Source of the DNA: a virus
Taxonomy: Duplodnaviria; Caudoviricetes
Reading direction: 5' to 3' (one strand)
Virus record (IMG/VR): IMGVR_UViG_3300020577_002599
Location: 1,841 to 65,840 of that record
Length of the DNA: 64,000 nt
Made by a program: the position numbers and the translations under genes
In this document: positions 32,086 through 63,191 of the stretch, piece by piece
How positions within the stretch are numbered: the first letter of the stretch is position 1
Layout: each line of letters opens with the position of its first letter
The notes under the pieces: model-generated
Databases searched by the model: none
What the model was told of the DNA's origin: nothing
Seen by the model: the letters and a program-made list of their open reading frames with translations, nothing else

Positions 32086-33444
32086 TCAACCACGAACGAG
32101 TACAAAATTATTTCTACCCATTGTACATAATGCACGCTCTGTCAACATATGAAGTTGGTTAGCATCTAAGTCAGAAGTGTTTGCACCACCAGCTGAACCT
32201 GTTTGCCACACTTTATAACGTCTATCTTCAGAAGCAGATTTGCGGTATTTAACATGTAAGAAAGGTAACGTAGCGTTAGCTCCTAATACTTCGTCTCTTA
32301 CAGTTTTAGTACCTGATGGACACATTACAGCGTTAATAGCTTGGTTTCCTTCAAATAAACCACGAGCTGTTGGGTCATCTAAGTATTTCCACTGAGATTT
32401 GTACAACTCATAACCAGCAACTTTGAATCCTGTGAATCCTAAGTTTAAAGCCATATCTTCGCTGTTGTTGAAAGCTCCGTAAGAAGTTCCTCCTACACCG
32501 TAAGAGTTTTGAGCAGCTAATAAGTAATCAATTGCTCTATCTTGCTCGAAGTCATTCATCATAATGTACTCAGAAATAGCACCTTGTTTGTTTAAACGAG
32601 ATAGGATTTCATCAATATCATCCATAGTAGATATAACACCAGAGAATACGTTTCCTTGAGCTACAGCTTCGAAGAAACCTTCAGTACCTGTATATCCAGC
32701 AGTTGCAGCAGCAGAACCAGTTTCGTAAGAAACACCCTCAATCATACCCATCTCAATGTAGTCATCGAATCTTAGACGAGATTGCGCTCTTGATTTTAAG
32801 TACCATAAGTAACCTGATCCGTTTTCTCCTTCAACTTCAATCCAACCAACTTGAGTCATATCAGAACCATTAACTTCATCTAATTCTTTGATGATGATTG
32901 GTTTGTTCTCAAAGATATCTGGAGTAGCCTCTAAAGACTCTTCACGACCATTAGTTCCTTTTCTGTACTCATTAGAGTAAGTGAATACATTGATTCCTGT
33001 AGCAGCTAAAGCACCAGCACTACCAGCAGTACCAAAACCAGCAGCAGTAGAAGCAGCAACTGTAAAAGTATCAGTAGTAACAGCAGTAATTAAACCTTTC
33101 ATTTCAACAGTACCGTCATTCAAGATAACTGTATCGTTTTTACGGAAAGAGTGACCTGCTAATGTAAACACAGCAGCTGAACGAGTAACACCTGTACCAA
33201 CTGGTCTTAAACGACCTTCTTCAGACCATTTAATTAAGTCAGATTGAATAGGCATCTCTTGACCCATTTTCTCTAAGAATCCTTTGATAGATTGATTACC
33301 ATAACGAGCAAATTCTTTCTCGTATAATTCAGGTAAATACTGATTTGTGAAATCGAAGTCAGCAGCTTCAAAATAGTTTGTAGACAAAATCTCTTTTGTC
33401 GCAGTAGGAGTTAATTTTACTCCTGGAGTTGTTAATAATGCCAT
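32086..33444 (-). CDS. Major capsid protein
   Basis: 452 aa after portal and scaffold, followed by a strong terminator; Gly/Ala/Thr-rich, with IKWSEEGRL and EGFFEAV segments like Bacteroidota podovirus capsids. Confidence 0.8.
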   Translation of the reverse strand: MALLTTPGVKLTPTATKEILSTNYFEAADFDFTNQYLPELYEKEFARYGNQSIKGFLEKMGQEMPIQSDLIKWSEEGRLRPVGTGVTRSAAVFTLAGHSFRKNDTVILNDGTVEMKGLITAVTTDTFTVAASTAAGFGTAGSAGALAATGINVFTYSNEYRKGTNGREESLEATPDIFENKPIIIKELDEVNGSDMTQVGWIEVEGENGSGYLWYLKSRAQSRLRFDDYIEMGMIEGVSYETGSAAATAGYTGTEGFFEAVAQGNVFSGVISTMDDIDEILSRLNKQGAISEYIMMNDFEQDRAIDYLLAAQNSYGVGGTSYGAFNNSEDMALNLGFTGFKVAGYELYKSQWKYLDDPTARGLFEGNQAINAVMCPSGTKTVRDEVLGANATLPFLHVKYRKSASEDRRYKVWQTGSAGGANTSDLDANQLHMLTERALCTMGRNNFVLVRG

Positions 33445-37001: not shown

Positions 37002-39632
37002 TTATTTATTATAAGTCCTTAAATTAATAACAACATCTTTTATTTGTCTTTGAGCTGGTGTGTACATTTTTCTGTTTACAGCCATGATAGCTAACCCAGA
37101 ACTAATAGCAGCATCAAATTTAGTTCTATTATTCACATCAAAATGTTTCCAATCATTTAGCGTATGATTGAACAACATATTCTGTGGTATCTCTCCATCT
37201 TCTCCTATAAGACCAACATACCTCTCTATCCAACTCTCTATAGCTGTCGCATGCATTTGTTTAACGTCTTCAGATGAGTTAGGCATACCTCCTAATTCTC
37301 TTTCAGCTGGTGAAAGCCTATTCTCTGCTTTATCAAAACGAGTAATACTGAAACCTCTGTATCCTCTATTCTTGAAATGATATAACAAACGCGGCTTGTT
37401 ATTCTCTGCTAATATAGGCATTCCATAAAACACGCACGCCATAAGAACATCTTCAAAGAAAATCTCTGCTGTCTGTGGTCTTGCTACATATTCTAAAAAG
37501 AACGTATTGTTTGGTGCATTGGAAAAACTAAAACCTGTTAATCCATGCAAAGCTCCTTTAGAAGCTCTATTATTATCTTGGTCATAAGACCCATCTTTTC
37601 TAACTCCTTCAACTGTACCTGATATATCATAGCTATCGCAACCGAAAGCACCTATATCATCATTCAATGGATACTTAGACATTCCTCCTGGACCATTCCT
37701 TAACTCGTGTCTATTCTGCATCTCTACAGGTGGTATCCAAGATATTAAGAATCTTCCTTTTTCATTAGGATGCCATTCAACTATTGTATCCTTAATACCA
37801 TCCTTCCATTGAAAGTTTCCTCGAACTAAAGCTTTATCAGCTTCGTGTTCTTCGTTTATTTTTAATTGTTCTAATATTTTCTCTATGTTAAAAGTAGACT
37901 GAAGTAACTCATCCCTGAATGCTTCATCAATTGTCATTGGAAATGCTCTAAGCTCTTCATTGTAAGCAATATCACTTTCTTTTCTTTTACTGCTTCTTTT
38001 TGCTTCTAAGAACTGAACACTACCTACGGTTTTCTTTTCTCCATGAACATTTATAAAAGAATCTCCTTTCTCAACCACCTCATGACAAACACCATACTTA
38101 TCTGTAAACTCCTCCATATTCTTATGAGCAGGAAGGAAGTAACAATAAAGACCAGATGGTGTGCGACCTGTAATCTTATTCCTCTTATTAATCTTAGATG
38201 CTTTATAAAGTTTGAAGAATTCTTCACCACCTTTATTCATTGCATTTACTGTACTACCAATAAAAGCCTTACCTACAACCTTACCTCCTGTATCGAATGT
38301 TGGCGATACTTGACCCCAGTGTTTTTCATAATTAGCAGGTTTTGCCCATTTTGAAGCCTCGTCTCCAAGATATCTATACATTCTCTGTCCGTCATAAGAA
38401 GCGTCTTTTGTAGGCTGATAGTCTATAAAGGTGTTTAGATAGTCATCTGTATTTGTGTCTTTATTTTTCTTAGCAGTTTTACTTCTGTCAGTTGGTTTTG
38501 CGAACTCTAAAAAGTTCTTACTATCCTCAGAACCTTTTACAATTGGTTTAAAAAAGAATGGTAGGTTTAAATATCCGTATCTTAACTTAGAGAATGCCAT
38601 CTTGGCATCTTCATCTGATTTAGATGTCATACCAATACGAGCATTTGCTGTTGATGTTGCATCATTAAGTAGCTGACATATAATCTGATAAGTAAAACCT
38701 GTACGTCTTGATTTTACAAATAATTCTCCTAAACATCTTGGATCTACAATACAAGCCTCTGTAAAGTAAAACATATCTCTTTGAGCTACTCTAAAATCCA
38801 TATAAGAACCTGTATCCTCCATCTTTACCCAATTAAGAGCAAAGTAATGAGTCCCAGTTAGATATTCAGGTTTTCCATTATTCATAAACCAAATACCCTC
38901 TCTTCTTCTTCTAAATTCCTCAATTATATATTCAGTATATGCTTCTGCATTGTCTTGAGATAATCCTGTAGGTGGCTCTTGTCTTCTCCAATATTGATTT
39001 TCTTTTTTCTCATTCCAGAAAAGTATATCTTTTTTATATGGAACTTTAGGAAGTGTAATCTTTAAATCACCAACATTAATTACCTCACCTTTACTACCTT
39101 TAGGGTCAATCATTACAGAATCATTATCTGCGTCATACCATTCTTTATAGTAATCTTTCTTTGGTAAGAATTCACCTGTAGCAAACTTCTCAGGATACCC
39201 TCTCTTAAACTCATTCTCTTTAAGGTTAATCTTGTCAGCATCAATCTGCATTCTAAGCTCAATTAAAGAAGAATCAATCTCGATAATAGCTTGATGAATA
39301 GATGGTTTTACAGAAATAGCAAGGTGATGTTTAGAAGGATCAAGTTCATCATAATTAATCGTACTCCTCAAAGCTTCTCTAAGCACGTTTAAGGCAACAT
39401 CTCCTGCAACAACTAATCTCTTTACGTACTTCTTAAAAGTATCCTCAGAAGGAGCGTTAGCACTATTAGACCACCTAAGTAATAATTCTTTTCCATACTT
39501 AAATGAATCTATCTTAGCTTTTACTACGGTTTTAACTTTATCAGGCTCAATTAAAGACATATCGGTGTTGTACTCTAATCCTTCGATTACAGTTTCAACA
39601 GCAATTTGTATATCCTTACTTAATCCTATCAT
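37002..39632 (-). CDS. terL: Terminase large subunit with long N-terminal extension
   Basis: Walker A FVKSRRTGFT, Walker B LGDEASK, RNase H-type GCDSYD and FDAAISSG nuclease motifs. Confidence 0.9.
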   Translation of the reverse strand: MIGLSKDIQIAVETVIEGLEYNTDMSLIEPDKVKTVVKAKIDSFKYGKELLLRWSNSANAPSEDTFKKYVKRLVVAGDVALNVLREALRSTINYDELDPSKHHLAISVKPSIHQAIIEIDSSLIELRMQIDADKINLKENEFKRGYPEKFATGEFLPKKDYYKEWYDADNDSVMIDPKGSKGEVINVGDLKITLPKVPYKKDILFWNEKKENQYWRRQEPPTGLSQDNAEAYTEYIIEEFRRRREGIWFMNNGKPEYLTGTHYFALNWVKMEDTGSYMDFRVAQRDMFYFTEACIVDPRCLGELFVKSRRTGFTYQIICQLLNDATSTANARIGMTSKSDEDAKMAFSKLRYGYLNLPFFFKPIVKGSEDSKNFLEFAKPTDRSKTAKKNKDTNTDDYLNTFIDYQPTKDASYDGQRMYRYLGDEASKWAKPANYEKHWGQVSPTFDTGGKVVGKAFIGSTVNAMNKGGEEFFKLYKASKINKRNKITGRTPSGLYCYFLPAHKNMEEFTDKYGVCHEVVEKGDSFINVHGEKKTVGSVQFLEAKRSSKRKESDIAYNEELRAFPMTIDEAFRDELLQSTFNIEKILEQLKINEEHEADKALVRGNFQWKDGIKDTIVEWHPNEKGRFLISWIPPVEMQNRHELRNGPGGMSKYPLNDDIGAFGCDSYDISGTVEGVRKDGSYDQDNNRASKGALHGLTGFSFSNAPNNTFFLEYVARPQTAEIFFEDVLMACVFYGMPILAENNKPRLLYHFKNRGYRGFSITRFDKAENRLSPAERELGGMPNSSEDVKQMHATAIESWIERYVGLIGEDGEIPQNMLFNHTLNDWKHFDVNNRTKFDAAISSGLAIMAVNRKMYTPAQRQIKDVVINLRTYNK

Positions 39633-46033: not shown

Positions 46034-47590
46034 ATGATTGTAAAAGAAGTTAAATTTAATTCAGATGCAAAAGACCCACTAATTAAGGGTATCAACACTG
46101 TATGTGACGCAGTAGCATCCACAATGGGATATCGAGGAAGAACTGTACTAATTGAAAGTGCAGGAGGTCTTCCAATCGTAACTAAAGACGGAGTTAGTGT
46201 TGCAGAGAGTATTTTCCTTGAAGACGCAACAGAAAGTCTTGGTGCAGAGTTTGTAAAACAAGCTTGTAGAAAAACCGTTAATGAAGCAGGAGATTCAACT
46301 ACTTGTACAGCAGTACTTACAAAAGCAATATTAAAGTCAGCGGAAAGTGCTTTAGCTTTAGGTGTTTCTGCTATTGATGTAAAGAATGGTATTGATTCTG
46401 CTGTAAAAGATGTGGTTGAACATTTAAAATCAAATGCAAGACAAGTTGATGATTCTTACTTATATGATGTAGCTCGTATTTCTTCTAATAATGACGAGTT
46501 CTTAGGAGGAATCATTGCAGACGCTTTTATTAAGGCAGGAAAGAATGGAGTTGTGTCTTATGAGGAGTCAGACACTTCTGAAACCTATGTTGATTTTATT
46601 AATGGTCTTCCAATTGCAAGAGGATATGAATTTGAAGGTTTTGTGAATAAACCAGAGAATAGAAGCATTGAGTTTGCTAATAATCCTTACATCTTATTAT
46701 CTAACAGAAGATTCCAAAATATTAGAGAGCTTTTGCCTGTGATTGAGTTTTGTCACAAGTCAAACCGAGAGTTGTTGATTGTTTCTGAAATGGAATTTGA
46801 GGTAATGAAGGTTTTATACGCAAACAAAAAGAATGGTCTTAAAGTAGCTGTAATTATACCACCAAGTATAGGTGAGAAAAGAAGAGATTACTTAACAGAT
46901 ATTTCTTTAGTTACAGGGGGTTTAATTGTGGACCTTGACACATCTACAAACATTGAAGGATATGACATGAATCAACTTTTAGGTTCTTGTAGTCGTCTTA
47001 CTGTTACAAAAGAGGATACTGTGCTATTCTTTAATGAAGAACAAAATAAAGAAGGTGTTGAAGCAAAAATTAAAGAACTTGAAGAAGTAATTAAGAATTC
47101 AAACAACAAACTTGAAAAAGAATACTTGAAAGATAGAATCTCAAAACTTGCTTGTGGTGTTTCTGTAATTAAAGTAGGTGCTTCTACTGAAGTTGAACTT
47201 AAAGAGAAGATTGATAGGGTAGATGACGCTATAAATGCAGTTAAGAGTGCTTTGTCTGAAGGAGTTGTTTCTGGAGGAGGATTAGCTTTGTATGAGGCTT
47301 CTAAAAACCAAAAAGTAATATTATCTGCTGGATATCAAGCATTATTATCTGCTATTAAAGCTCCAATTAAAACTATATTATCTAATGCTGATGTTAATTT
47401 AGAAGATGTAGACTACAAACTCGGAAATGGTATTGGATATGATGTAAAAGAGTATGAAACCTGCAATATGTTTGAGAGAGGTATTATTGATCCACTTAAA
47501 GCAATTAGATTAGCTTTAGAGAATGCTGCAAGTGTGGCTACAACAGTTTTATTAACCAACACAACAATTACAAATAAAAGAAGTGTATGA
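46034..47590 (+). CDS. groEL: Phage-encoded chaperonin GroEL
   Basis: VTKDGVSVA, AGDSTT, AGKNGVV, VIKVGASTEVELKEKIDRVDDA, GVVSGGG and GIIDP motifs. Confidence 0.95.
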   Translation: MIVKEVKFNSDAKDPLIKGINTVCDAVASTMGYRGRTVLIESAGGLPIVTKDGVSVAESIFLEDATESLGAEFVKQACRKTVNEAGDSTTCTAVLTKAILKSAESALALGVSAIDVKNGIDSAVKDVVEHLKSNARQVDDSYLYDVARISSNNDEFLGGIIADAFIKAGKNGVVSYEESDTSETYVDFINGLPIARGYEFEGFVNKPENRSIEFANNPYILLSNRRFQNIRELLPVIEFCHKSNRELLIVSEMEFEVMKVLYANKKNGLKVAVIIPPSIGEKRRDYLTDISLVTGGLIVDLDTSTNIEGYDMNQLLGSCSRLTVTKEDTVLFFNEEQNKEGVEAKIKELEEVIKNSNNKLEKEYLKDRISKLACGVSVIKVGASTEVELKEKIDRVDDAINAVKSALSEGVVSGGGLALYEASKNQKVILSAGYQALLSAIKAPIKTILSNADVNLEDVDYKLGNGIGYDVKEYETCNMFERGIIDPLKAIRLALENAASVATTVLLTNTTITNKRSV

Positions 47591-59324: not shown

Positions 59325-60062
59325 ATGGCACAAGTAAGCGATTGTTGTGGTGCGTACTCAGAGTATGCAGGAGATGTAGATATATGTCCAGAATGTTTAG
59401 AGCATTGTGATTTTTATGATGATGAGGAAGACGATGATAGTGGAGATGATTAAAACTTAAAAATAAATAAGATATGAACAAAACACAAATTATCAACGAA
59501 ATAAAAGACCTTATGTTTGTTGCAGAATCAACAGAAAATGTGTACTTTTATCATTCCTTAGAGCGAATTAAGAAAGCTTTAGAGGAAGAATGGACAAACT
59601 CAGATATGTATATGGAAGAAATAAAGTCCGTATTAGGTTATGAGCAAACAATGGAAGACTTAAATCAAATTAAACTATGAAGATAAGGTGCAGAGAAATA
59701 AACAAGGCATTAACTAAGAAGTACTTAACACCAAACAAAGAGTACGAGGTTAAATTAAAGTTAGATGGAATGGTTGTTATAAAAGATGATCAAGGAGATG
59801 ACGTATTAGTAAAGTTAAAAAATTGTAATCACATTAATTCAAATTGGGAAGTATTATGAGAGTAAAGTATAGAGGAGAAGAGATTGAAGTAACATATGAA
59901 ACTTATGGATTTTATTCTCCAGCAACACGTTTTCAGCCAGCAGAATATCCTGATATATTTATTGAAGACGTAGAATATCAAGGAGTTAGCATTTTTAAAA
60001 TATTATCTGATAATGATATAGAGGAAATATTGGAATCACTTATTTCTGAGTTAGAGTGTTAA
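59325..60062 (+). CDS. Small early genes (59325-59453 Cys/acidic, 59474-59680, 59677-59859, 59844-60062)
   Basis: Co-oriented ORFs; the first has SDCCGA..ICPECLEHC plus an acidic tail. Confidence 0.6.
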
Positions 60063-60188
60063 CGTTCCCTCAGCTTGTTGCAGTTGCGGATAATTAAAAA
60101 CTGACAATTCAAATATACACTAATTTTTAAATTAAAAAACAAAATGGAAAAAGAAACACAAACACCGCAATTGCCACAAACGGCTGTT
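60061..60188 (+). repeat. attC-like hairpin 1
   Basis: AAC-GTTCC..CAGTTGCGG / CCGCAATTG..GCT-GTT imperfect inverted repeat with A-rich loop. Confidence 0.8.
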
Positions 60189-60590
60189 AGCGGTTGTATT
60201 GTCACATTTGACTTTGATGGCACGCTTTCAAGAAATGATGTTCAAGAATATGCTTTAGAATTAATATCAAAAGGCGTTGATGTTTGGGTAGTTACTTCAA
60301 GATATGACGAATTACATAAACATCGTTATCAAATTAATCCAACGAATGACGATTTATGGGAAGTTATAGATAGACTGAATATTCCTAGATGGAAAGTTAG
60401 ATTTACTTGTATGGAATGGAAAGCATCATATTTATTTCACACAAATTCAGTTTTTCATTTAGACGACAATAACGAGGAATTTTTTGAAATGCGAAAATTA
60501 AAATGCAAAACAAAAGCAGTTCAAGTAAGTTCTGGCGGATTTCAAAATAAATGTAATCGCATTCTATTACGTTCTGTAGATAACCGCTAA
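60144..60590 (+). CDS. Cassette 1 gene: HAD-superfamily hydrolase-like protein
   Basis: VTFDFDGTLS, WVVTSR and FHLDDN motifs; the start codon lies inside hairpin 1. Confidence 0.75.
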   Translation: MEKETQTPQLPQTAVSGCIVTFDFDGTLSRNDVQEYALELISKGVDVWVVTSRYDELHKHRYQINPTNDDLWEVIDRLNIPRWKVRFTCMEWKASYLFHTNSVFHLDDNNEEFFEMRKLKCKTKAVQVSSGGFQNKCNRILLRSVDNR

Positions 60591-60713
60591 CGTTCCCACG
60601 CTTTACGATGTTGCGTAATTAAGCAATGAACACAGCAAACAGAAAGAAATTATTAAATTAAAAACAAATTATTACTAACAATACCAAAACCAGCAATATC
60701 GTAAACGTGTGTT
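60589..60713 (+). repeat. attC-like hairpin 2
   Basis: AAC-GTTCC-CACG(C)TTTACGATGTTGC / GCAATATCGTAAACGTG-T-GTT. Confidence 0.85.
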
Positions 60714-60744
60714 ATAGTTAGTGGCGGTTTTAAAAACTTAAATT

Positions 60745-61085
60745 ATGAAAATTATAAAAAAATTAGACAAATTATTTGATAAATATTATTCTAAACAATT
60801 AGAAATACAAGACGCTGAAAATCCTGAATATTATTTATATATGGGAAAAGCAAACGGAATAAAAGAATCTATTGATTTAATTGAAAAAGATAAAAAAAAT
60901 ATTAAAAAACTCTTACAATTTAAAGCAAATGAATATAAACTAAAAAGAGATTTTGCTAAAAAAAATGTGATAATCAAAATAAGTTCGATATTTCTTTTGA
61001 AGCAGAAGTTGAAGATGAAATGTTATTATTAGCTGAAAGGGAATATAGTGTTGTTTTAGATATTTTAAACTATATTTCAAAGTAA
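60745..61085 (+). pseudogene. Cassette 2 gene, apparently frameshifted at A8 (60958-60965)
   Basis: The annotated frame ends at 61032; the -1 frame continues CDNQNKFDISFEAEVEDEMLLLAEREYSVVLDILNYISK* to just before the cassette boundary. Confidence 0.55.
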
Positions 61086-61109
61086 AAAATAAACGTAGCT
61101 ATTAACTAT

Positions 61110-61225
61110 AACGTTTTGCAACTTGGCATCAGTTGCGGATTATGAAAACAGATTTTCATATTTATAACAAAAATAACTTAAAAATTAGTATTAACAAAAT
61201 ACAGCAATTGTGCCAAATTGCTGTT
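61110..61225 (+). repeat. attC-like hairpin 3
   Basis: AAC-GTTTT-GCAACTTGGCATCAGTTGC / GCAATTGTGCCAAATTGC-T-GTT. Confidence 0.85.
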
Positions 61226-61239
61226 ATAAGTAGCTTTTT

Positions 61240-61497
61240 ATGGACACAAAATTAAAATTCGTAAGATTAAAACAATACAATGAAGTAATTATATTTCCTT
61301 GTGTTATTGAACATTCAAAATTTAAACATCTTAATCCTATTTCCGCTGGTTTTTGCTATATTTTAGGCGATGAGCAAAGAGTAACTTGTTTTGGCGAAAG
61401 TTATTCTTTAGGGCTAAAGGCAGACGAAAAACAAGACACTATTGAAGCTACTAAATGGGTGTTTGGAATAGATGCAATGTTAAACGTAATGCGTTAA
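61240..61497 (+). CDS. Cassette 3 gene: conserved phage hypothetical protein
   Basis: IIFP..IEH..ISAGF..CFGESYSL pattern. Confidence 0.7.
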   Translation: MDTKLKFVRLKQYNEVIIFPCVIEHSKFKHLNPISAGFCYILGDEQRVTCFGESYSLGLKADEKQDTIEATKWVFGIDAMLNVMR

Positions 61498-61507
61498 AGT
61501 TACTTAT

Positions 61508-61632
61508 AACGTTCCCACAGCTTTGCGAGGTTGCTGAAAATATAAAACTTCGCTTCGATTTAAAAAGTGCATTGCAAGTACACACTAAACATCAAATTAA
61601 TAAATTACCAGCAATCTTGCAAAACTGGTGTT
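61508..61632 (+). repeat. attC-like hairpin 4
   Basis: AAC-GTTCCCA-CAGCTTTGCGAGGTTGCTG / CAGCAATCTTGCAAAACTG-GT-GTT. Confidence 0.85.
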
Positions 61633-61647
61633 AACAACAGTAATATT

Positions 61648-61968
61648 ATGAAAACAACATTTTGGATTTTATTTACAGTATTTATGGTTATTTATAGTGC
61701 TGAACCAAACATTAAATTTAAACCTTTTTCAATTTCTTTTGAAAGTCCTTACATTCCTTTTGCTTTATTTTTTCTTGTTTTATCAATTTCTTTTTTTGGA
61801 ATACATTATCAAAAAAAAGGAGAAAAACAAGGTAGAATAGAAGGATTAGAAGAATACTATCCAAAAGGATTTAAAGAAGGTTCTGACTTTATTCTTGAAG
61901 AAATAAATAAAAAAATAAAAGAACAAGGAAAAGATTGTACTATTTCAGTTAAACGCAACGATGATTAA
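61648..61968 (+). CDS. Cassette 4 gene: membrane protein
   Basis: Two hydrophobic helices; ATG at 61648. Confidence 0.7.
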   Translation: MKTTFWILFTVFMVIYSAEPNIKFKPFSISFESPYIPFALFFLVLSISFFGIHYQKKGEKQGRIEGLEEYYPKGFKEGSDFILEEINKKIKEQGKDCTISVKRNDD

Positions 61969-61979
61969 TTATTGTTGTT

Positions 61980-62098
61980 AACGTTCCGAGTGCTTGCCGT
62001 TCGGTGGCATTTTGAACACTAAAGATTACAAACACAAAAACACTATCCGAGTGATTTCGGACACAAACCAAGCCTGCCACTCACGGCAAACACTTGTT
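61980..62098 (+). repeat. attC-like hairpin 5
   Basis: AAC-GTTCCG-AGTGCTTGCCGTTCGGTGGCA / TGCCACTCACGGCAAACACT-T-GTT; inner TCCGA/TCGGA hairpin. Confidence 0.85.
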
Positions 62099-62129
62099 AG
62101 TGGCAGTGTTTCTCATAAATTTCAATAAA

Positions 62130-62483
62130 ATGCGGAAAATAGAAGTAAAAATCAGACAAATTATTTGGGCTATCAAACAATCATTTAAGCCCACAACTTA
62201 TGACCTTGTTATTTATCAAGGGAAAGAATATTATATTAAATCAAGCCTTACAGGTGAAAATGTTTGGAATCTTTTTGAAAAAGGAGAAAAAGAACCAACG
62301 TATAGACGTATCAAAGGTCAAGATTTAAAAGTGGTTCAATCAATAAAAAGGTTTACCAATGTTTTTAAAAATCATTTAAAATTCCAAAAACAAAGTTGGG
62401 ACTTAATTGATTGTGGTAATCCGATTGGAACAAGGCTTAGTTACAATAATTCCGAAGACATATATTTTCGGAGGTCGTTCTAA
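62130..62483 (+). CDS. Cassette 5 gene: hypothetical protein
   Basis: ATG at 62130; the stop abuts the closing inverted repeat. Confidence 0.7.
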   Translation: MRKIEVKIRQIIWAIKQSFKPTTYDLVIYQGKEYYIKSSLTGENVWNLFEKGEKEPTYRRIKGQDLKVVQSIKRFTNVFKNHLKFQKQSWDLIDCGNPIGTRLSYNNSEDIYFRRSF

Positions 62484-62542
62484 CATTGCCACTAACTATT
62501 CGCTTGACGAAACAAAACAACACTATAACTAATTGATTTACA

Positions 62543-62808: not shown

Positions 62809-62870
62809 CAAAAGGAGTTAGTCGAAAATCCTATAAAGAGTAGACATAATTAAATTTAATTAAATTAAGT

Positions 62871-63191
62871 ATGGCAAGTTTAAACAATTTGTATTTAAAG
62901 TTAGAGACATTAGAGACTCTAGTAAAAAGAATTAAGTCTAAAGGAGAAAATGGCATTAGCATAGACATCTCTATTAATGACGAAGCAAATCAGTACAATC
63001 AAAATGTATCTGCTTATGTAACTCAATCTAAAGACGATAGAGACAACAAGAAGCCTCGCTACTATGTGGGTAATGGTAGAACATTCTGGACTGATGGAAC
63101 TATTACGGCATTCAAGAATGAATCTAATGATAGTGGAAAGAAAGATATGAAGAAAGAGCTAGAACCACAAACAGATGACTTACCCTTCTAA
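62871..63191 (+). CDS. Putative single-stranded DNA-binding protein
   Basis: 106 aa, beta-rich, acidic C-terminal tip TDDLPF; adjacent to ERF. Confidence 0.65.
   Translation: MASLNNLYLKLETLETLVKRIKSKGENGISIDISINDEANQYNQNVSAYVTQSKDDRDNKKPRYYVGNGRTFWTDGTITAFKNESNDSGKKDMKKELEPQTDDLPF

Follow-up and report, generated by a model that had tools for sequence, protein, structure and literature searches.

Single-strand recombination in integrons is thought to depend on extrahelical bases in the folded recombination site and on a protein segment that is specific to the integrase, IntI. IntI recombines the classical attC sites (59-base elements) in the form of their folded bottom strands (Bouvier 2005; MacDonald 2006; Nivina 2016, PMC5027507), and among 263 classical attC sites one strand was found to be more stable by 2.12 kcal/mol and richer in G:T mispairs (Nivina 2016, PMC5027507). 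Clusters of attC sites without an integrase (CALINs) occur in virulent phages such as Polaribacter phage P12002L, where they carry methyltransferase cassettes (Qi et al. 2023, PMC9892861). That study covered two to three sites per phage and used classical attC models and IntI1 assays (PMC9892861). Here we describe a comparable set of elements in a stretch of 64,000 nucleotides, positions 1,841 to 65,840 of IMG/VR virus record IMGVR_UViG_3300020577_002599. This stretch (hereafter the window) is nearly the entire 65.8-kb genome of a phage with terminal repeats. It has a G+C content of about 30%, and sequence comparison shows that the phage is related to the Flavobacterium Elemovirus phages. Between positions 60060 and 62496, five small genes on the + strand alternate with five elements of the same plan, each about 120-130 nt long. 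We propose that the five elements between the genes act as recombination sites in the form of folded single-stranded DNA, and that they belong to an integron-like cassette system of Flavobacterium chromosomes and phages. We give this reading a probability of roughly 0.7.

In architecture and in behaviour, the elements and their arrays are integron attC sites and cassette arrays with distinct site features. Like classical attC sites, they are imperfect hairpins in which R boxes (AAC/GTT) and L boxes are combined with a central spacer that stays unpaired and a terminal loop that varies. They are arranged in cassette arrays, their crossover is compatible with AA|C, and one of their strands is more stable and enriched in G:T pairs. 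They differ from classical attC sites in several respects. First, the R stem of this Flavobacterium type is 15 bp long and contains a fixed mispair at position 11. Second, there are no conserved extrahelical bases; fixed G·T, C·A and G·T mispairs are found instead. Third, the spacer is one-sided (4-5 nt against 0-1 nt) and lies on the arm with the AAC that would be cleaved. Last, the bias in stability is roughly doubled and comes wholly from G·T pairs at fixed positions. The resemblance to the phage CALINs lies in the integrase-less phage arrays, in hosts that belong to the Flavobacteriia and in the DNA methyltransferase cargo of related siphophages. In contrast to those CALINs, our sites have the fixed mispairs, the 15-bp R stem and a Bacteroidota recombinase that is not in that paper (PMC9892861). 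P12002L itself (locus L302) carries a related, distinct subtype at 38880-38935 and 32492-32694 (-), with the spacer GGACG after TAAC and an R' of GTTACC. In the literature searched, we found no description of this Bacteroidota site variant.

Each element in the window begins with TAAC, which is followed by four to five unpaired bases, a stem, usually a T, and then GTTA. The two arms of the stem (L and L') enclose an AT-rich loop of 60-90 nt. In addition, every cassette gene is bracketed by a 15-nt inverted repeat, with R' (GTTA...) on the left and R'' (...TAAC) on the right. These repeats were read directly from the letters and were also recovered in a separate repeat search. The features are:

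60060 to 60189, + strand: site A; TAAC, GTTCC(CT) unpaired, L stem, AT-rich loop, L' arm, GTTA.
60186 to 60200, + strand: R' of cassette 1 (GTTAGCGGTTG...); G11 is 60196; partner R'' at 60577-60591, with T11 at 60581.
60588 to 60714, + strand: site B; TAAC, GTTCC bulge at 60592-60596, 4-bp stem, unpaired or mismatched C at 60601, upper stem GTTG/CAAT with a G·T pair, then GTTA.
60711 to 60725, + strand: R' of cassette 2; G11 is 60721, with a second G·T at 60723; partner R'' at 61098-61112 (T at 61102 and T at 61100).
61109 to 61226, + strand: site C; TAAC, GTTTT bulge at 61113-61117, C at 61122, L stem, GTTA.
61223 to 61237, + strand: R' of cassette 3; G11 is 61233; partner R'' at 61496-61510 (T at 61500).
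61507 to 61633, + strand: site D; TAAC, GTTCC bulge at 61511-61515, C at 61521, L stem, GTTA.
61630 to 61644, + strand: R' of cassette 4; G11 is 61640; partner R'' at 61968-61982 (T at 61972).
61979 to 62099, + strand: site E; TAAC, GTTCC bulge at 61983-61987, C at 61993, L stem, GTTA.
62096 to 62110, + strand: R' of cassette 5; G11 is 62106; partner R'' at 62482-62496 (T at 62486).
62482 to 62510, + strand: array end; the last R'' (...CACTAAC), then backbone TATTCGCTTGACG without a hairpin.

The array in the window terminates as CACTAAC|TATTCG (62496/62497). Site E is about 80% identical to sites of roughly 90 GenBank Flavobacterium siphophages.

A first-pass annotation of this DNA, made from the letters, had noticed that the 11th base of R' is a G opposite a T in every cassette, while positions 5-10 vary among cassettes and keep their complementarity. 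Both observations hold for all five cassettes (60196/60581, 60721/61102, 61233/61500, 61640/61972 and 62106/62486). The same annotation listed 60723 as the only other mismatch. This base does form a G·T with T 61100, but positions 13 and 15 of cassette 1 do not pair either, and the statement is true just for the arms as they were first drawn.

Position 11 is conserved far outside the window, and the pattern is well above what chance would produce. Our sample consisted of 314 non-redundant cassettes, of which 151 came from phages and 163 from Flavobacterium and related chromosomes. Its sources were about 100 GenBank Flavobacterium phages that carry the site family, together with 87 IMG/VR stretches and 120 bacterial genome stretches added by a pattern scan, the latter strongly enriched for Flavobacterium. 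Cassettes were delimited by a hairpin finder, which yields false positives in GC-rich genomes, and R' and R'' were then compared without gaps. Of the 314 cassettes, 272 (87%) had a G·T at position 11 and 32 had a C·T or T·T; a Watson-Crick pair was present in seven (2%), a few of which may be noise from the hairpin finder. The R'' base at this position was T in 307 cassettes (98%), and an A in R', which would pair with it in Watson-Crick fashion, was present in three. The rest of the R stem covaries. Positions 1-4 are GTTA/TAAC, whereas positions 5-9 and 12-14 differ between cassettes and are Watson-Crick in 89-98% of them, compared with 28-58% when R' and R'' are mixed between cassettes. Pairing ends beyond position 15. 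Thus, the mispair at position 11 is obligatory, its T is nearly invariant and an opposing A is avoided. The avoidance of A suggests that the pair state at position 11 is under selection, and the G·T is a near-universal mark of this cassette system.

The hairpins themselves contain additional fixed irregularities. The extra bases reported after AAC on the left arm are present in all five sites, as GTTCC at 60064, 60592, 61511 and 61983 and as GTTTT at 61113. Four of these bases are unpaired in the folds of sites B, C and D; in site A, the unpaired region is bigger and less regular than in sites B-E. A conserved C lies 10 or 11 positions after AAC (60601, 61122, 61521 and 61993). It had been described as unpaired or facing A, correctly so, and in 216 canonical sites it is mostly a C·A mismatch. 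For these 216 sites we used a strand-neutral alignment of both hairpin arms, with numbering from the base after AAC. The surplus of the 5' arm is G-T-T-Y, and position 5 lies opposite the T that precedes GTTA. The L stem then consists of four Watson-Crick pairs, position 10, which is C·A in 64% of the sites and Watson-Crick in the rest, and four more Watson-Crick pairs, followed by minor irregularities at positions 15-17. In the upper stem, about 85% of the sites have a G·T at position 19 or 20 (the conserved GTTG/CAAT), and the terminal loop varies from 5 to more than 100 nt.

Covariation also supports the L stem. For 49 diverse phage sites, RNAalifold predicted 22 pairs, 17 of them with compensatory changes. 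The cells of the L stem were paired in 89.9% of cases as opposed to 65.2% after shuffling (none of 500 shuffles reached as high), and the covariation score was 0.563, compared with 0.145 for shuffled sites and at most 0.147 with slid partners. In all 49 sites, the G that follows AAC formed a G·T with the T in front of GTTA, so that a bulge of four bases (TTYN) is an equally good reading, and the upper-stem pair was G·T in 42 of the 49. The fixed mispairs are therefore more numerous than position 11 alone and include the G·T at the AAC/GTTA junction, the C·A at L10 and the G·T of the upper stem. The alignment of the 216 canonical sites shows no conserved single-base bulges, and the 4-nt bulge is on the arm that also has the AAC, in contrast to classical extrahelical bases, which lie on the opposite arm. 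We had also considered two single-base bulges (C and A) 6 bp apart, as in attC aadA7; this was rejected because the symmetric alignment of the arms shows mostly mismatches in their place, C·A at 10 and variable ones at 15-17. The first-pass annotation regarded G11·T and the bulge as recognition determinants equivalent to the extrahelical bases of attC, and we believe that they may reasonably be seen in this way.

The asymmetric positions could be recognized without any folding. According to this explanation, the T11 of R'', the G11 of R' and the GTT after AAC would be base-specific duplex contacts that mark the half-sites, like the XerC and XerD arms of dif, and the wobble would be irrelevant. 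It would account for a T11 that is nearly invariant (307/314) while its partner is G, C or T, and for a bulge in which GTT is conserved in sequence; furthermore, the linked enzyme is Xer-like, as described below. However, 15 positions of the R stem and about 20 of the L stem covary across 300-1000 nt or across variable loops, which is sensible only if the arms pair, and the avoidance of A at R' position 11 (3/314) is an additional point against it. We consider duplex contacts an unlikely explanation, although the two readings can coexist.

The first-pass annotation had recommended folding the rebuilt circular cassettes. To restore the junction of the circle, we fused every hairpin with the R'' and R' repeats of the cassette to which it belongs and folded both strands with DNA parameters. 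The + strand was more stable in 308 of the 313 sites that differed, with an advantage of about 4.2 kcal/mol (averages 3.8-4.7). The folds contained 3.45 G·T pairs per site on the + strand and 0.9 on the complement. When all G·T pairs were recast as A-T, the strand difference was gone (+0.48); position 11 alone contributed about 1.1 kcal/mol of it. For the four junctions that could be rebuilt in the window, the values were -19.3 to -22.2 for the top strand and -15.3 to -20.4 for the bottom strand. Because the G·T pairs turn into C·A on the complement, only the + strand folds stably. The asymmetry emerges only after the hairpin is joined to its own R' and R'' arms. It is on conservation and covariation, and not on the energies of single sequences, that our case rests.

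Comparison of closely related loci shows where the cassettes recombine. Among loci that are 96-100% identical apart from insertions and deletions, we found at least nine distinct events in which one to several cassettes had been gained, lost or replaced. All resolvable junctions were within TAAC|G(T), on the 5' side of the hairpin, even where the flanks differ. The unit that moves is a hairpin together with the gene downstream of it, closed by its own R''-TAAC. In siphophages, new cassettes were inserted at the array end, ...TATAAC|TACAAT, and the window array has an end of the same kind. The intersection of the microhomologies narrows the crossover to the invariant TAAC, which is compatible with cleavage at AA|C. 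We had first expected the exchange to take place at G|TTA, where the hairpin faces its gene, but this was rejected, as the indel junctions place it at TAAC|G. When a tyrosine recombinase acts on the R box of a hairpin, it can cut only the 5' arm, which leads from the R box to the spacer. Given this chemistry of the enzyme family, a crossover in the TAAC of the + strand suggests that the + strand is the recombined one. This is the same strand that is favoured by the G·T pairs, and strand selection is well supported.

Turnover of cassettes is also seen at the position of the window array. Loci L009 and L011 are homologous to the window from 62482 onward; at this point of the backbone they contain a single cassette that differs from those of the window and likewise has a G·T at position 11. 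They are the closest relatives of the window phage (L011:1852-2330; ERF 91% identical) and have this one unrelated cassette where the window has five. Between the R'/R'' of their cassette and the last pair of the window, there are two compensatory changes. Elsewhere, a replacement event distinguishes L162:1666-3319 from L105:3384-3438. These loci look alike downstream and differ in R' (GTTATAGGCTG versus GTTAACCGCTG), and one gene may have come to lie under different cassette ends in this event.

The arrays of the host chromosomes point to a candidate enzyme. In each of three Flavobacterium genomes, the protein that best matches the integron-integrase model is encoded at the end of an array of the same sites. 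The array stops 0.6-2 kb from the 3' end of this tyrosine recombinase gene in each of the three chromosomes:

L297:4897-6075: recombinase of Flavobacterium sp. 5N022; the array starts at L297:6711 and is more than 100 kb long.
L298:3548-5326: recombinase of F. celericrescens, at the array end.
L301:8943-10697: recombinase of Flavobacterium sp. W1B, at the array end.

The array of more than 100 kb extends from G001:C4:2596711 to beyond 2705706 (L297, L221, L197, L186 and L299) and is comparable in size to the superintegrons of Vibrio. The host recombinases, whose best family is the integron integrase, score 193-218 bits with TIGR02249 (cut-off 265). They match it in two stretches and skip model positions of about 180-240, which means that, unlike IntI of integrons, the linked recombinase is below the cut-off and is without the stretch that distinguishes IntI in this model. 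They match the XerA, XerC and XerD models about equally well and have N-terminal extensions, and one of them attains the XerA_Arch cut-off. In this resemblance to XerC, XerD and XerA, the system is similar to Xer/dif and pdif modules. The dif sites differ in being duplexes of 28-30 bp that have neither long covarying hairpins nor repeats closing a cassette. The cassettes next to the host recombinases have G·T at position 11, and their arrays end with AAC|TA. Homologues of the recombinase (42-45% identity) adjoin arrays in 2 of 173 viral loci. These homologues, which are found on IMG/VR contigs (L112:238-981 and L149:4224-4775, both on the - strand), are on the same strand as the sites; the chromosomal arrangement is convergent.

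The orientation of the cargo bears on whether the sites function as DNA or as RNA. In phages, 111 of 112 classifiable cassettes had their longest frame on the folding strand. In chromosomes, by contrast, the longest frame was on the complementary strand in 125 of 134 cassettes, an arrangement shared with integrons. The phage cargo is thus flipped compared with that of chromosomes and of integrons, and the hairpin heads its gene. Since the asymmetry is kept in both orientations of the cargo, it is a property of the DNA strand and not of the transcript. The first-pass annotation had concluded that one strand is selected as single-stranded DNA or RNA. The choice of the + strand is upheld by the one-strand G·T pairs, by stability and by the crossovers, whereas an RNA substrate is unlikely.

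An explanation based on RNA would state that the structures work in processing, as terminators or as leaders of early transcripts, and that the cassette boundaries coincide with them through homologous exchange at conserved sequence. In phages the folding strand is indeed the coding strand, start codons lie in the loops, and G·U is a normal pair in RNA. Nevertheless, the same asymmetric sites are antisense to their cargo in nearly all of the chromosomal cassettes counted above, and the crossovers fall in the 4-6 nt of TAACG(T) even with differing flanks. In addition, the arrays end at a tyrosine recombinase, and Rfam gave no match to the five window sites at E up to 1. We regard the RNA explanation as very improbable, and the substrate is probably single-stranded DNA.

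The phage hairpins also take part in the genes that they precede, as cassette 1 shows. Its open reading frame (60144-60590) has its ATG (60144) inside the loop of site A, and the frame continues through L' and R'. It contains an FDFDGT motif, seen by eye, that is typical of HAD phosphatases. In locus L007, several methyltransferase genes likewise begin within loops.

We also find little to recommend single-strand 'peel and paste' transposition of the IS200/IS605 type, in which an HUH Y1 transposase would insert the unit 3' of TAAC. Insertion 3' of a fixed tetranucleotide that also ends the unit would agree with this, as would hairpin ends with strand asymmetry, but Y1_Tnp (PF01797) has no match in the window phage and the array-linked gene is a tyrosine recombinase in three chromosomes and two phages. 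Last, we give almost no credence to the idea that the G·T at position 11 was inherited from an ancestral site without selection, because, although all sites clearly form a single family, the neighbouring positions have fully turned over with compensation while 98% of the 314 cassettes, which come from phages and several bacterial genera, have no Watson-Crick pair at position 11.

Several results speak against our proposal that the elements are folded single-strand recombination sites. A profile search found no tyrosine recombinase in the window phage. Similarly, Pfam identified no recombinase among its ten larger early proteins, and none is annotated in Hemulen6-1. The crossover is resolved no more finely than the four invariant bases TAAC. 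When the five window sites are folded in place, with their long AT-rich loops and no R stem, they are thermodynamically ordinary (z from -0.1 to -3.4). Their two strands are then near equal, with a small advantage for the bottom strand in site E. In addition, the C·A at L10 is a G·T on the opposite strand. Finally, the T11 of R'' (98%) is more constant than the G11 of R' (87%), which suggests that the T itself, and not the wobble, may be read.

Based on our current knowledge of these sites, we propose a model of how the cassettes could move. The mobile unit would consist of the G and the TTYN bulge, the L hairpin with its variable loop, T-GTTA-R', the gene, and R''-TAAC. On the + strand, R'' and R' would pair over 15 bp, with a non-Watson-Crick position 11 (in R', G in 87% and C or T in the remainder). 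The G that follows AAC would wobble with the T before GTTA, TTYN would be bulged out, and the L stem would carry a C·A at 10 and a G·T at 19/20. A Xer/IntI-like tyrosine recombinase, supplied by the host or by a co-infecting phage, would bind the folded + strand at its R and L boxes, cleave within TAA|C and swap strands with another site or with an array end (AAC|TA...). The mispair at position 11 may mark the outer edge of an 11-bp recombinase arm; an arm of this length, as in Xer, would place position 11 at its edge. The one-sided bulge of 4 nt would act as an asymmetric central spacer that sets polarity. Such an enzyme may act on the window array, and it may contact the mispairs or the bulge.

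A broader hypothesis can be formulated for the Bacteroidota and their phages, and we hold it tentatively, at somewhat less than even odds. It is possible that the fixed purine-pyrimidine mispairs (R11, the AAC/GTT junction, L10 and L19) and the one-sided 4-nt bulge replace the extrahelical bases of attC, and that a short Xer-like recombinase without the segment that distinguishes IntI uses them to pick and orient the folded strand. Phages would flip the cargo, and the recombination hairpin would then also serve as leader and start of each gene.

Two other features of the window were noted. A DUF805b RNA motif (Rfam) is present at 62812-62846 (+), with 37.1 bits, which is above the gathering score, and an E value of 3.8e-8. 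It lies downstream of the cassette array and directly upstream of the open reading frame 62871-63191. A Cpn60/GroEL-type chaperonin gene is located at 46034-47590 (+), with a Pfam E value of 1.8e-53, on the strand opposite to that of the neighbouring genes.

In sum, a large natural set of sites, comprising hundreds of cassettes and arrays of more than 100 kb, retains the hairpin logic of integrons and marks the strand by fixed mispairs. Additionally, these fixed-mispair sites adjoin a recombinase that is without the IntI-specific segment. Flavobacterium phages and their hosts share one pool of cassettes, and this pool includes DNA methyltransferases that probably counter restriction.

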